Shown here: one piece after another, positions 3,647 to 19,450 of the stretch
Layout of the letters: each line of letters opens with the position of its first letter
Position numbering within the stretch: position 1 is the first letter of the stretch
Origin: Candidatus Saccharimonadota bacterium
Lineage (GTDB): Bacteria > Pseudomonadota > Gammaproteobacteria > Enterobacterales > Enterobacteriaceae
Direction of reading: 5' to 3'
DNA: 32,000 nt
Assembly: GCF_039383305.1 (NCBI RefSeq)
Contig: NZ_CP135009.1
Location: 240,001 to 272,000 of the forward strand
Made by a program: the position numbers and the translations under genes
Notes under the pieces: model-generated
Told to the model about the DNA's origin: nothing
Database searches by the model: none
What the model saw: the letters and a program-made list of their open reading frames with translations, nothing else

Positions 3647-4771
3647 TTATATGGTATTAGGCAAAGAATATAATTTTATTGTTACTCGTCTATCAAATGC
3701 TAAAAAATTTTTTAAAATTTCTTGATTTTTAATTGTAGAATATGTTGAAGCGTCAAAAAAATGATTACAACCCATTCCTTTCAAAAAAATTTTTTTAATA
3801 GGAAAATTTTTTGACTTTAAAAAATCAGCGACAATTTGTGCTCTTTTTTCTGATAATTTTTGATTATTTTCTACAGTTCCAAATTTATCAGCATATCCCG
3901 TAATCATAATATATTTTGTATCACAATTATATTGTGTAATTTTTTGTATAAAAGATTCTAAAATTTTTTTAGAAACCTCAGAAAGTTCATAACTATTAGA
4001 ATCAAATAAAATATTTTCTTGAAGATCCATTGAAACATTAGATCCATTTCCAATCGAGATATTCGAAAAATTTGTATTAATTTTATTATTTTGATAAGAA
4101 TATTTTGAATATGAATTTATCGGATGATTTTCAGAATTATTTTTATAATTATTAAAATTCCTAGAAATACCAACATTAAAACAGCCCCAAGTAGCATTTT
4201 CTAAAGAAGAAAATCCATCTTGCATAATTTTTTTAAAATTATAATCAAAATGCACATTAGTTTTATGAGTAAATAAATAATCTAACCCTAATGTTAAAAT
4301 TGGTAAAATTTTATATGTTGTATGTAAATCTTTATTTGATTTTTCAAAATCATTCATATCTTTAAAATTTTGTACTGAATACATTGTACCAATTCGAGAA
4401 TATACATTTAACGAAGAAGATAATGGTACAGAAAATTTTGCAGTTCCAGAAAAATCATAATTATAAATTTCAGGTAAAGAAAATTGTAATATTGGTAAAA
4501 TTTTTCCGGATATATCTGTATCTACTTGAAAATGTAAATATGGATTAAATTTATAACCAATAAAACCACCAAAATTAAAATTTTTGATATGATTAAACAA
4601 ATTTGATATAGTAAATAATTCTTTTATTTCTTGTACTCCAACTCCATTATGAGGAGGTAACCAATTATTTTTAATTCCAGTATACCAATAATGTTTTTGT
4701 ATTTCTGAAGCTTGTACAGTAGAAAATATACTAGATATAAAAAATATTAAAAAAAACAATATCTTTTTCAT
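3647..4771 (-). CDS. ompA: Outer membrane protein A (beta-barrel plus OmpA-like peptidoglycan-binding domain)
   Basis: The C-terminal OmpA domain reads ...ILFDSNSYELS...ITGYADKFGTVENNQKLSEKRAQIVADFLKSK...DRRVTI. The likely start is the ATG at 4771, giving signal peptide MKKILFFLIFFISSIFSTVQA. The track start at 4807 adds 12 residues. Confidence 0.85.
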   Translation of the reverse strand: MKKILFFLIFFISSIFSTVQASEIQKHYWYTGIKNNWLPPHNGVGVQEIKELFTISNLFNHIKNFNFGGFIGYKFNPYLHFQVDTDISGKILPILQFSLPEIYNYDFSGTAKFSVPLSSSLNVYSRIGTMYSVQNFKDMNDFEKSNKDLHTTYKILPILTLGLDYLFTHKTNVHFDYNFKKIMQDGFSSLENATWGCFNVGISRNFNNYKNNSENHPINSYSKYSYQNNKINTNFSNISIGNGSNVSMDLQENILFDSNSYELSEVSKKILESFIQKITQYNCDTKYIMITGYADKFGTVENNQKLSEKRAQIVADFLKSKNFPIKKIFLKGMGCNHFFDASTYSTIKNQEILKNFLAFDRRVTIKLYSLPNTI

Positions 4772-6873: not shown

Positions 6874-7530
6874 TTATAAAAATATATAAATTTTTTTTTC
6901 TTTATGTAATTTCCCAAAAATAATTTTTTTTTTATTTAAGAGAATTTGGATTTTTTGATTTACTTCAGCATCTTGTAACGAAGTTCCAAAAACTTTAATT
7001 ATAAAACCTTTACCATATAAAAAAATTGGAATTATATCTCCTCTTTTAACTAAAAAAAAAGAATGTAAATTTTGATATGAAAAAGGTTGATTTGGAGAAA
7101 GAGGATTTATTAATTTTTTATTTAAAATATTTTTAATATTATAAATAGAAGTAGAAATATTATATGGAATGTTTAAATATTTAATTTTAATATCAGATTT
7201 AGAAATTATAACACCTTTTTTTAAAAATTTAGAAGCTACAAAATATTTATAGAATTTTTTTTTTTTATAAAAATTTTTATTTTTATTAAAAATTTTATAA
7301 TTTTTTTTTTTAAAATCATTTTTTTTAAATGTTTTTTTTATTTTATATTGTAAAAAAAAATTTTTTTTTTTCTTACTAGCATTTACGAAATGATTATTAG
7401 TTAGAATTTTAAAATCTAATATTTTTTTTTTTTTATAATAAATATTATCATTAAAATTTTTTGTTAAAATAAAAGGCTGAAAAAATACCTGAAAAATATA
7501 CAAAAAAAAAAATATTAATTTTAAAAACAT
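6874..7530 (-). CDS. flgA: Flagellar basal-body P-ring formation chaperone FlgA
   Basis: It is divergent from flgB, as in enterics. The C-terminal half (INPLSPNQPFSYQNLHSFFLVKRGDIIPIFLYGKGFIIKVFGTSLQDAEVNQKIQI) aligns with the E. coli FlgA SAF/beta-clip region (LSPDQPIQLTQFRQAWRVKAGQRVNVIASGDGFSANAEGQALNNAAVAQNARV). Confidence 0.8.
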   Translation of the reverse strand: MFLKLIFFFLYIFQVFFQPFILTKNFNDNIYYKKKKILDFKILTNNHFVNASKKKKNFFLQYKIKKTFKKNDFKKKNYKIFNKNKNFYKKKKFYKYFVASKFLKKGVIISKSDIKIKYLNIPYNISTSIYNIKNILNKKLINPLSPNQPFSYQNLHSFFLVKRGDIIPIFLYGKGFIIKVFGTSLQDAEVNQKIQILLNKKKIIFGKLHKEKKIYIFL

Positions 7531-9206: not shown

Positions 9207-9318
9207 AATTTATAAAAATTATAATTGTTCTTTTTAAAATTATCGATATGATACGAAGAGTCAATAAAAATTTAAAATCTTAATAACATTCTTTTAAAAT
9301 TATAATGAGTAAATATCT

Positions 9319-10896: not shown

Positions 10897-11583
10897 GTGT
10901 TTAAAAATTTTTTAAAAATTTTAAATTTTTTATTATTAATAATTAGTTTATCTTTTATAGATTCTATTTATGCTCGGAATGAATTTCCAAAAAAAAATAA
11001 TATTATCTTTATACATAATAAAAAAGATAAAAAAATAATTTATCAAAAATATTATTATCATAATTGGTTTGAAGATAAACCTCATTATCAAATAGGAGAT
11101 AATTTAATAATATTTTTACAAGAAAATATTATGACTCAAAATCGAACTTTTAATAATACACAAAATAATTCTTCTACTTTTTTTAAAATTCGTTCATTAT
11201 TATTTTCTTTAATTAGTCAAATTTTTTCAAAAAAAAAAAATGATTTACCATTTTTACAAACTATCGGAACAAATGTTTTATTAGATGATAATAAATCATT
11301 AGAAAAAAATACTTTTTTAGGAATGATTACTGTTACAATACAAAAAATATTTCCTAACAATCATTTAGAAGTTGCAGGAAAAAATTCAATTTTAATTAAT
11401 GGAAATGTAGAATCTATTCGTTTTTTTGGTATAGTAGATCCCAATGAAATTGTAAACAATATAGTTCCTTCTTCAAAAATTTCTCATAAAAATATTGAAT
11501 ATGTAAAACATGACACATCAAAAAAAGAAAATTTTTTTGAAATTTTAAAAAAATTTTGTATAAATTTTTTTCCTAATTTTTAA
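10897..11583 (+). CDS. flgH: Flagellar L-ring protein FlgH
   Basis: GTG start with AGGA upstream. [22 protein letters not shown] compares with E. coli [64 protein letters not shown] compares with [42 protein letters not shown]. Confidence 0.88.
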   Translation: [228 protein letters not shown]

Positions 11584-11641: not shown

Positions 11642-12681
11642 ATGAAAACTCTGTTAAGATATTTTTTATTATGTAATATTTTTATAAATATGATATTAAT
11701 AAATTTTGCATTTGCTTCAGAAAATACAATCAAGAATTTAACTAACATTTCAGGAGCTTATACTATTCCATTAATTGGATATGGTTTAATGGTAGGATTA
11801 CCTAATAGCGGCGATCAAATTCCATATTCAAATTTTACTTTACAGACTATGTTAAATCTTTTTAAAAAAATGGGAATTGATGTTAAAAATACAAAAAATA
11901 TTCAAACAAAAAATATTGCATCAGTAATGGTTACCGCTGAATTACCTGCTTTTAATTATATTGGTCAAAAAATTCCTATTTATGTTTCTTCTATTGGTAA
12001 TTCGCAAAATTTACAAGATGGTACTTTATTAATGACTCCTTTAAAAAATTCCAATGGTATACGCTATGGAACCGCTCAAGGACATTGTAATTTAAAAATA
12101 GAACACTTAACAAATATAAATTTATTAAATAATCAAAATTTTAAAAATAATATTAAAATTAAAAATGGGGGTATTGTTGAAAAAACTTTTCAAAATGTTA
12201 TAGAACATAATGGGCATATAAAATTACAATTAAAATCTAAAAATTTTTATATGGCTCAAAAAATTAGTGATATAATTAATAAAAAATATCCTAAAATTTC
12301 TTTTCCTTTAAATGAAAGATCTATACAAATAAAAGTACCTCATAATAAAAGAACGCAATCACGTTTATTAGCAAATATACTACATTTAAAAATTAATACT
12401 AAAAAAAAAAAAAAAATATAATTTTTTTAAATTTAAAAAAAAATAAATTTTTCTTAAATCATGAAATTTATATTAAAAATTGTAAATTTTTAAAACATAA
12501 TGTTTTTTTAAAAATTAAAAATTTTAAAAAAAAAAAACAACAAAATATATATAAAAAAACTAAATTATCCCATATACTTACCGCATTTAATTTTTTAGGA
12601 ATTAAATCATCTAAAATTTTATCTATTCTAAAATCCTTAAAAAATAAAAAAGCGATTATTGCAACTATAAAAGTGATATAA
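11642..12681 (+). pseudogene. flgI: Flagellar P-ring protein FlgI, interrupted by a frameshift in a 16-A tract (12401-12416). One extra A or two fewer gives an intact protein of about 346 aa
   Basis: The N-terminal 258 codons (11642-12415) align with E. coli FlgI through ...RLLANILHLKINT (RFLADIQNMQVNV). The annotated frame then stops at 12419-12421. The frame offset by one base is stop-free from the tract to 12681. It encodes NIIFLNLKKNKFFLNHEIYIKNCKFLKHNVFLKI...[39 protein letters not shown], matching E. coli [32 protein letters not shown]...[39 protein letters not shown]. Confidence 0.9.
12401..12416 (+). repeat. A16 homopolymer containing the flgI frameshift (candidate transcriptional slippage site)
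   Basis: Sixteen consecutive A residues counted directly. The reading frame changes across this tract. Confidence 0.95.
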
Positions 12682-12972
12682 ATGAAAACATTAACATATG
12701 AAGATTTCAATACAATACAAAAAATAAAAAATTTTTTACCACAAAAAAATGATCAATTAAAAAATTTAAAAGAAATTTCTTCACAAATTCAAACTTTATT
12801 TATAAACATATTTTTAAATAGTGTAAAAAATTCTAATATAAATTTAAATCCTCAAATAAATTTAGATACTACTAGTAAATTTTATAAAGATCTATATATG
12901 AATTATCTTTCAAATAAATTTAATCAAAAAGATATAGGTTTTTTGCAATTAATAAAACAACAAATTTTATAA
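12682..12972 (+). CDS. flgJ: FlgJ reduced to the N-terminal rod-binding (rod cap) domain, with no muramidase domain
   Basis: 96 aa against 313 aa in E. coli. LKEISSQIQTLFINIFLNSVKNS...SKFYKDLYMNYLSNKFNQKDIGFLQLIKQQI aligns with the E. coli FlgJ N-terminus ...VARQVEGMFVQMMLKSMRDA...TRLYTSMYDQQIAQQMTAGKGLGLAEMLVKQM. Its ATG directly abuts the stop of the flgI downstream frame (TAAATG). Confidence 0.75.
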   Translation: MKTLTYEDFNTIQKIKNFLPQKNDQLKNLKEISSQIQTLFINIFLNSVKNSNINLNPQINLDTTSKFYKDLYMNYLSNKFNQKDIGFLQLIKQQIL

Positions 12973-13102: not shown

Positions 13103-14043
13103 ATGATAAAAAAAGATTATAAAATTTTTATAAAAAAAGATACAAGTAATCAAAGAATTGATAATTTTTTATTTACAAAATTTAAAACACTACCTAAAAG
13201 TTTAATTTATAAAAACCTAAGATTAGGAAAAATTTTAATTAACACAAAAAAAAAAAAACCATCTTATAAATTAAAAAATCATGATGAAATATTATTAAAA
13301 TCTTTAAAAATCACACCATTTAAAAAAAAAAAATATTATTTCATAAAAATTTAAAAATAAAAATTTTAAAAAACATTTTATATGAAGATTCTTCTTTAAT
13401 AATTTTAAATAAAACTTCTGGAATTTCTGTACATGGAGGTAGCGGAATTAATGCTGGAATTATAGAAATTTTACGAATTATTAGAGTGGATATTTTTTTT
13501 TTAGAATTAGTACATCGATTAGATAAAGATACATCTGGAATATTATTATTAGCAAAAAAAAAATCTGTCTTAAGAAATTTACATCAACAATTACGAGAAA
13601 AAAAAATTAAAAAGTATTATATAGCTTTAGTGCATGGATTATTTAAAACTCAAAAAATCATTACAAATTTTCCAATTTTAAAAAAAAAAAATAAATTTAA
13701 TCTTATGTCAATACATAAAAATGGAAAACCTTCTAAAACTATTTTTACAATTAAAAAAATTTTTTTAAATTCTACCTTAGTAAGAATACACCCTATAACA
13801 GGCAGAACTCATCAAATACGTATTCATGCTTCTAAAATTGGACATCCAATACTTTATGATTCAAAATACGGAAATAATAATTTAAATTTAAAAATTAATA
13901 AAATTTTACAAAAAAAAAGACTTTTTTTACATGCATATCAAATCTTTTTTTTACATCCTAAAAATAATAAAAAAATGTGTATAAAAGCCCCTTTAGATCA
14001 AAGATTTGAAAACGCTATTAAAATTCTTTCAAAAAATAACTAA
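13103..14043 (+). pseudogene. rluC: 23S rRNA pseudouridine synthase RluC, interrupted by a frameshift in a 12-A tract (13322-13333). One extra A gives an intact protein of about 313 aa
   Basis: The N-terminal S4 domain (QRIDNFLFTKFKTLPKSLIYKNLRLGKILINTKKKKPSYKL) is in one frame and stops at 13352-13354. The offset frame is open from 13324. It encodes ...ILFHKNLKIKILKNILYEDSSLIILNKTSGISVHGGSGINAGIIEILR...LELVHRLDKDTSGILLLAKKK...GRTHQIRIH, matching E. coli RluC ...ILYEDDHILVLNKPSGTAVHGGSG...FLELVHRLDRDTSGVLLVAKKR...GRTHQIRVH. The DEI-to-ILYED spacing is 28 residues, the same as in E. coli, if one A is added. Confidence 0.9.
13322..13333 (+). repeat. A12 homopolymer containing the rluC frameshift (candidate transcriptional slippage site)
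   Basis: Twelve consecutive A residues counted directly. The frame changes across the tract, and the downstream frame has a TAA at 13321-13323 immediately before it. Confidence 0.95.
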
Positions 14044-19096: not shown

Positions 19097-19450
19097 ATGA
19101 AAATTGAAAAAATTTTTTCTCAAATAGTTTTAAATAAAAAAAAAAAAAAAATAATTTATCAAGATAAAATTGTAACTGCATTTAAAGATAAAAATCCTCA
19201 AGCACCAATACACATTTTAGTAATTCCAAATATTTTAATTCCTACAGCAAATGATATTACTAAAAAAAACAAACACTTTTTTACACATATGTTTTATGCA
19301 TCCTTAAAAATTACTAAAAAATTAAATATTCATAAAACAGGATATCGATTAATTTTCAATTGTAATGCACATGCAGGACAAGAAATCAAATATATACATT
19401 TACATATTTTAGGAGGAAAAAATTTAGGACCTATAATATGTAAATCTTAA
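19097..19450 (+). CDS. hinT: HIT-family purine nucleoside phosphoramidase HinT (YcfF)
   Basis: From the ATG at 19097, [50 protein letters not shown] compares with E. coli [50 protein letters not shown]. The histidine triad is YIHLHILGG. The 39-residue N-terminal extension in the track has no homology. Confidence 0.9.
   Translation: [117 protein letters not shown]

Follow-up and report, generated by a model that had tools for sequence, protein, structure and literature searches.

A one-base poly(A) frameshift at a domain boundary of flgI may leave a working P-ring gene in the Buchnera symbiont of Nippolachnus piri

A one-base frameshift within a run of 16 adenines (A16) divides flgI, the gene for the flagellar P-ring protein, into two reading frames in the DNA analysed here, a stretch of 32,000 nucleotides (contig NZ_CP135009.1, positions 240,001 to 272,000 of the forward strand; hereafter the window) whose source is Buchnera aphidicola of the aphid Nippolachnus piri. 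With a probability of roughly 0.55, the flgI locus is still functional, giving a short FlgI by default and some full-length FlgI via slippage at the A-run. The lesion is a newly seen member of an established class of poly(A) frameshifts. While the phenomenon itself is established, what is new here is the coincidence of the tract with a domain boundary, the precedent of short FlgI proteins in Buchnera of Cinara aphids, and the evidence from frameshifted rluC genes. The elements of the locus are listed below by their positions in the window.

11642..12421, plus strand: genomic flgI open reading frame (ORF) of 259 amino acids (aa), comprising a signal peptide, FlgI-IRU and FlgI-OR, with a premature TAA at 12419-12421.
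12401..12416, plus strand: A16 run, the frameshift site; frame 0 reads ACT AAA AAA AAA AAA AAA ATA TAA and encodes the Lys linker K254-K258.
12403..12681, plus strand: -1 frame with 92 open codons, 88 of them 3' of the tract; stop at 12679-12681.
From the AAT at 12415 in the -1 frame, plus strand: FlgI-IRL domain of 87 residues (NIIFLNLKK...ATIKVI), identified by Pfam FlgI and by identity to the protein of Tuberolachnus salignus Buchnera.
12526..12537, plus strand: A12 run within the tail, in frame; it falls in the flexible loop of IRL, which is shortened here.

Much of this had been foreseen in an original prediction made from the letters of the stretch. The stop of flgI at 12421 behind an A16 run at 12401-12416 is borne out by the sequence and by the translation, which ends in ...INTKKKKKI*; the frame offset by one base is open up to 12681, and its TAA directly adjoins the flgJ ATG at 12682 to form the TAAATG junction that had been described. 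The remaining two forward frames of the tail stretch contain 11 and 13 stops, the mean open stretch across the window in all six frames is 11.5 codons (median 6), and the stop-free tail segment was obtained in 1 of 100,000 composition-preserving shuffles. The prediction had reckoned with a stop about every 10 codons by chance. This null fits random sequence but is wrong for a recently frameshifted gene; since an open tail is also expected for a young lesion, the random-sequence null overstates the case for selection.

That the offset frame encodes the missing C-terminus of FlgI, formerly argued from comparison with E. coli sequences, is now confirmed by homology. The Pfam family FlgI (PF02119) matches the N-terminal part (E=3e-62, profile positions 2-233 of 343) and also the downstream peptide alone (E=1.3e-5, profile positions 284-343 of 343), with the genomic ORF scoring 210.9 bits, and the protein 236.9 bits after repair, at a gathering cut-off of 25.3. 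Identity between the downstream peptide and the C-terminus of FlgI in T. salignus Buchnera, where the protein is intact, is 51%. Addition of one A gives, as had been proposed, a FlgI of 346 aa, which aligns with the T. salignus protein through the junction without an indel (TKKKKKN vs IHLEKKN). At the homologous site, T. salignus has GAA AAA AAA AAT, an in-frame A10. Because the repaired N. piri protein is collinear with that of T. salignus, the N. piri state can be described as the loss of one base from a run that substitutions had extended to an A17 equivalent. The IRL loop of N. piri is 10 residues shorter than that of T. salignus and far shorter than in other FlgI proteins.

The 259-aa product is identical to RefSeq WP_343126391.1 (FlgI, Buchnera aphidicola), which is encoded in CP135006 and in a 417,660-bp genome; these genomes are from Buchnera of Nippolachnus piri, samples 09 and 10, and were obtained by Illumina NovaSeq sequencing of PCR-amplified libraries and MEGAHIT assembly (Lu et al., 2024; PMC11193766). 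The genome (417.6 kb) is reduced and AT-rich, the guanine-plus-cytosine (GC) content of the window being 19.2%. RefSeq/PGAP labels the ORF at 11642-12421 as a normal FlgI, with the frameshift unmarked. The closest relative is Buchnera of T. salignus (CP135003, locus L004), whose FlgI is intact (338 or 356 aa, depending on the annotation) and 59% identical. Four N. piri assemblies were compared: the window, CP135006, and the Logan assemblies SRR28869279 and SRR29339702. They differ by six single-nucleotide polymorphisms (SNPs) and one intergenic T8/T9 indel across 6.8 kb (~0.1% divergence), and thus represent at least three haplotypes.

The site of the frameshift corresponds to a joint in the protein. 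In the LP ring of Salmonella, mature FlgI consists of the OR (residues 1-11 and 160-230), IRU (12-159) and IRL (231-346, including the flexible loop 264-295) domains (PMC8298488). A phmmer alignment to 7bgl pairs K254-K258 of N. piri with precursor residues 247-251, or mature residues 228-232, and the tract therefore straddles the OR/IRL boundary (230/231). An AlphaFold model of the repaired protein, with a mean predicted local distance difference test (pLDDT) score of 82.9, has a strand at 250-252, a coil at 253-259 and the next strand at 260-264, and its pLDDT dips to 66 for the block 251-260. Foldseek matched the repaired model to the Salmonella P-ring subunit 7bgl_a (E=3e-28, TM-scores 0.58/0.65). 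The three-domain fold (IRU, OR, IRL) is held by the repaired model only, the genomic ORF being without IRL. As the tract lies on the OR/IRL boundary, the 259-aa ORF encodes a Sec-exported, domain-complete short FlgI with signal peptide, IRU and OR. In the Salmonella structure, the pockets that bind FlgH, the lysines and the loop that face the rod, and a putative peptidoglycan-binding module all lie in IRU and OR (PMC8298488). A short FlgI is a third option that was overlooked in the original prediction, where only slippage, a very young pseudogene and a sequencing error had been considered.

FlgI proteins of this form exist in related symbionts. A search with the C. piceae protein yielded five FlgI proteins of 252-273 aa from Buchnera of Cinara, including strain BCc of C. 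cedri (P0124, P0033, P0115, P0122 and P0123; loci L005, L006, L087, L089 and L090, with flgI from 3001 to ~3800). By alignment, the C-terminal ends of all five fall at the OR/IRL boundary, no more than a few residues from the point at which the N. piri ORF is truncated. At the five loci, the IRL-coding DNA and flgJ are deleted, and rluC follows 40-360 bp downstream; remnants of the IRL domain or flgJ were not found in the Cinara spacers, where tblastn gave low-complexity noise only. Pairwise dN/dS of the short flgI, estimated by the Nei–Gojobori method (NG86), is 0.22-0.37 at dS 0.34-0.90, while flgH of the same species pairs gives 0.32-0.53. Values this low, below those of flgH, indicate that an IRL-less FlgI is kept by selection in the Cinara clade. 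The Cinara proteins and the N. piri ORF are alike in ending at the OR/IRL boundary, in their flgH-flgI context and in coming from symbionts of one aphid subfamily. In Cinara, however, not only the IRL DNA and flgJ but also most rod genes are gone, with flgF, flgH and flgI as the only flagellar genes remaining at this locus, whereas the tail (12415-12681), flgJ, flgA and the rod genes are intact in N. piri. The fifth locus (L090) is from JBPBPJ010000101.1, labelled as a Janthinobacterium lividum metagenome-assembled genome; it has a Cinara-Buchnera-type flgF-flgH-flgI-rluC-rpmF-fabD block and is probably mis-binned. In LR217710 (L006), flgH is annotated at 2297-2966, 670 nt for 223 aa, apparently another frameshift-corrected coding sequence.

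Poly(A) frameshifts of Buchnera and Blochmannia, in runs of 10-12 nt, are reportedly rescued by transcriptional slippage (Tamas et al., 2008, PNAS; Wernegreen et al., 2010, MBE; Williams and Wernegreen, 2010, PMC3017870). The original prediction assigned flgI to this class, and the assignment holds: the GC content, a single indel in a long coding-strand A-run and intact homologous flanks match the cases in PMC3017870 and PMC5009743. Genes with such poly(A) frameshifts are routinely treated as intact (PMC3017870), and 12-50% of the transcripts are given as frame-corrected at poly(A) runs of Buchnera and Blochmannia (PMC5009743). The flgI case is like the class described in 2008 in its AT-rich reduced genome, in the one-base indel in a sense-strand A-run of at least ~9 nt, in having both halves intact and in needing one additional A. 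It differs in that the run is A16 rather than 10-12 nt, in that it lies on a domain boundary, and in that the unrescued product is plausibly functional. The flgI frameshift may also be young.

Slippage rescue at flgI, which by the original prediction would keep the gene under selection, is plausible. AT-biased substitution would first have extended the A-run to an A17 equivalent, from which the loss of one base left A16. A fraction of the reads through the tract would shift frame as RNA polymerase adds one A or drops two; alternatively, the ribosome might slip by -1 on A AAA AAA, or in-frame genome copies might persist as a minority. E. coli ribosomes have been shown to slide along iterated AAA codons (PMC4363877). 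By any of these routes, frame-shifted reads would yield the full-length FlgI of 346 aa, and with some full-length protein made in this way the locus would stay functional and the lesion would be mild. No RNA structure was found downstream of A16 (fold z-score -0.31) and no terminator near it, and promoter-like matches there are fewer than in shuffled sequence. With no flanking stimulator, any slippage would depend on the tract alone.

A second gene of the window carries a lesion of the same kind.

13103..14043, plus strand: rluC, split by a one-base poly(A) frameshift at an A12 run (13322-13333); S4 part at 13103-13354, catalytic part in the -1 frame at 13324-14043.

A tblastn search with C. 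cedri RluC switches frame at this A12 tract. Poly(A) frameshifts of rluC occur in five genomes, namely N. piri (A12), T. salignus (A14, a different run, at 4581 of L004), C. piceae and LR217710 (a shared A13, at 4065 of L005 and L006) and the L090 genome (A11 at 4347), while rluC is intact in C. cedri and in version 2 of C. pseudotaxifoliae. All of these shifts need one additional nucleotide, the same direction as in flgI. Over the 235 codons past the A13 shared by C. piceae and LR217710, dN/dS is 0.137 at dS 0.52 and there are zero stops, which is strong evidence that expression of, and constraint on, a frameshifted gene persist in Lachninae Buchnera. The constraint on rluC indirectly supports a working slippage rescue in this clade.

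Two other kinds of frame control were considered and rejected. In dnaX-type programmed -1 frameshifting, a slippery A-rich heptamer (A AAA AAG/A) allows a -1 shift that gives an alternative product, and flgI has such a heptamer. The flgI site, however, is without an upstream Shine–Dalgarno-like stimulator or a downstream stem-loop, and it is not conserved in T. salignus. In the contingency loci of pathogens, as in flgI, a long homopolymer in a gene for a surface structure sets the reading frame. Phase variation was rejected because there is no tract-length polymorphism among the sampled N. piri strains; the flgI tract is invariant, and an obligate clonal symbiont has no obvious use for switching.

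Several measures of selection on flgI are available. In the comparison of N. piri with T. salignus, the N-terminal part of flgI has a dN/dS of 0.31 and the tail one of 0.52, while the other genes give 0.62 for flgH, 0.52 for flgJ, 0.46 for flgF, 0.32 for fabD and 0.18 for flgG, values that mostly reflect the time before the frameshift and are crude, with synonymous sites near saturation and NG86 applied at 19% GC. Both flgI SNPs among the N. piri strains are at third codon positions and synonymous. In relative-rate tests of low power with eight outgroups, N. piri-specific tail changes numbered 6-11 vs 7-10 with seven outgroups and 3 vs 9 with the eighth. Neither these tests nor the dN/dS of the tail can separate a selected tail from a young lesion. 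A stop arises from 51 of the 792 single substitutions that are possible in the tail, and the frame of a neutral tail would stay open with a probability of 0.5 at 4% divergence and 0.05 at 18%.

The flagellar genes around flgI include the following.

10897..11583, plus strand: flgH, for the L-ring protein, the partner of FlgI; intact ORF, with Pfam FlgH on the identical gene in L001/L002 and the dN/dS of 0.62 vs T. salignus.
12682..12972, plus strand: flgJ, 96 aa, the rod-cap part only; 56% identical to T. salignus FlgJ, with the dN/dS of 0.52.
6874..7530, minus strand: flgA, for the periplasmic P-ring chaperone; intact, Pfam ChapFlgA E=6.6e-15.

The flgH-flgI-flgJ operon context is thus present in the window, and flgA, flgB, flgC, flgF, flgG, flgH and flgJ of N. 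piri are intact ORFs, with flgD also kept. In pea-aphid Buchnera, FlgI is among the most enriched proteins of the basal body (PMC8109811). To judge from the gene content, from the dN/dS of the N-terminal part of flgI (0.31, close to the 0.32 of fabD) and from the two synonymous SNPs in flgI, the basal body appears to be still in use in N. piri Buchnera. FlgA had no match in the 3 kb that precede flgI, either at the Cinara loci or at T. salignus L004, where the stretch is too short to reach the position of flgA. The hook gene flgE is absent between flgD, still an open frame of 226 aa, and flgF, which are separated by a 112-bp spacer at 9207-9318. The flgD of T. salignus (L004 85-500) matches in two frames, indicating erosion.

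The one-base frameshift of flgI is very probably genuine. The opposite explanation, named as an alternative in the original prediction, is that the true tract is A17 (or A14) and that flgI is an ordinary intact gene misread in sequencing or assembly. Long homopolymers do stutter in Illumina sequencing of PCR-amplified libraries such as the published ones, and such calls can change: two assembly versions of C. pseudotaxifoliae Buchnera (L088 vs L089) differ at the rluC tract at 4362, which is a frameshifted A11 in one and an intact A12 in the other. Moreover, the contig of Logan SRR29339702 (L003) stops at locus position 3789, 14 nt past A16, as would fit an assembly graph broken by reads that differ in tract length. 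A16 is nevertheless identical in all four assemblies, which stem from two or more assemblers and comprise three or more haplotypes, and in the list of the 120 best matches out of 5.8 billion clusters N. piri appears with neither a full-length nor a tail-only protein. The window holds 32 homopolymer runs of at least 11 nt, 30 of which are sense-strand A of an ORF (lysine runs) and two T on the mRNA. All sense-strand A-runs of this length except two (28/30) keep the reading frame, among them the A16 of hinT, one A14 and five A13, and the only frame-breaking ones are the flgI A16 and the rluC A12; with the other long runs in frame, systematic undercalling is unlikely. An artefact is therefore improbable. 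The in-frame A16 of hinT, at 19136-19151 near its 5' end (NKKKKKI), may serve as an internal control for homopolymer stutter.

Given a real lesion, the chance that the IRL tail is still needed comes a little short of even, and the chance that it is newly dispensable is somewhat below that. In the latter direction lies convergent domain loss, in which only the short two-domain FlgI counts, the IRL tail has recently become a neutral relic that is bound for deletion as in Cinara, and any slippage product is incidental. The truncation point coincides with that of the five Cinara proteins under purifying selection, the IRL part is already evolving faster than the N-terminal part (dN/dS 0.52 vs 0.31) and its flexible loop has shrunk, and the flagellum of the clade is eroding, with flgE absent in N. 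piri and flgD frameshifted in T. salignus. An in-frame allele is only one slippage step away, yet every sampled haplotype has A16, and the open tail fits neutrality up to ~4-18% divergence. On the other hand, if the age of the frameshift is distributed evenly along the N. piri branch (dS ~0.4), an intact tail of 88 codons would by our estimate be caught only ~15% of the time, and the relative-rate tests, for all their low power, give no excess of N. piri-specific tail changes. N. piri also retains the rod genes, flgA and flgJ, which Cinara is without at this locus, and rluC indicates that frameshifted genes are maintained in the clade. We regard domain loss as an unlikely but serious alternative. 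Much less probable still, and a shade below the artefact, is that the whole flgI is a dead, very young pseudogene, the P ring being unneeded and neither product functional. Lachninae Buchnera have shed flagellar genes, flgI and flgH having been lost in some Cinara lineages, and the inactivation of a gene in Buchnera usually starts with an indel in a homopolymer according to Moran et al. (2009), as that paper is cited in PMC3017870 and PMC5574713. A dead gene is difficult to reconcile with the dN/dS of 0.31 in the N-terminal part, among the lowest of the six genes compared (only flgG is lower), with the intactness of flgH and of flgA, whose only known role is in P-ring assembly, with the synonymous nature of both SNPs within the species, and with the enrichment of FlgI in the pea-aphid symbiont (PMC8109811).

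The reading that flgI remains functional, with a short default product and some full-length FlgI, also has to face several points that weigh against it. In genome-wide data on transcript errors, Traverse and Ochman report no frame-restoring events in Buchnera (PMC5574713). The genes flgA, flgB, flgC, flgD and flgG are gone from the Cinara Buchnera locus, and since N. piri retains the full rod-gene set and Cinara does not, the tolerance of a short FlgI in Cinara may not transfer. According to a 2026 preprint, some Cinara Buchnera no longer have flgI and flgH. The strains with the frameshift differ by just six SNPs per 6.8 kb, T. salignus being in frame, and with the frameshift known only from near-identical strains, any selection on the tail since then is hypothetical. 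Finally, all sequence data for flgI are from Illumina, with the published libraries PCR-amplified, and a systematic one-base undercall is possible.

A more far-reaching proposal, which we put forward tentatively, is that A16 acts as a soft domain switch. The Cinara and Nippolachnus lineages would be independently converging on an IRL-less P-ring protein, and N. piri would be at an intermediate stage, in which the short form is the default and slippage is the sole source of the full-length form. Poly(A) linkers prone to slippage would in that case buffer the loss of domains during genome reduction, and IRL would be dispensable for a non-rotating, secretion-type basal body. Either way, comparisons of flagellar gene content among Buchnera would misscore flgI, which appears in RefSeq as a plain FlgI with its intact tail unflagged. 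The flgI locus is a clean natural experiment on the question of whether slippage at poly(A) tracts keeps genes working or is only a companion of their decay, because the unrescued product plausibly works, a related clade has fixed the truncation and the hinT A16 provides an internal control. The short FlgI proteins of Cinara Buchnera suggest that a non-motile basal body can do without the lower inner ring of its P ring, which bears on the function of these structures in the symbiont.

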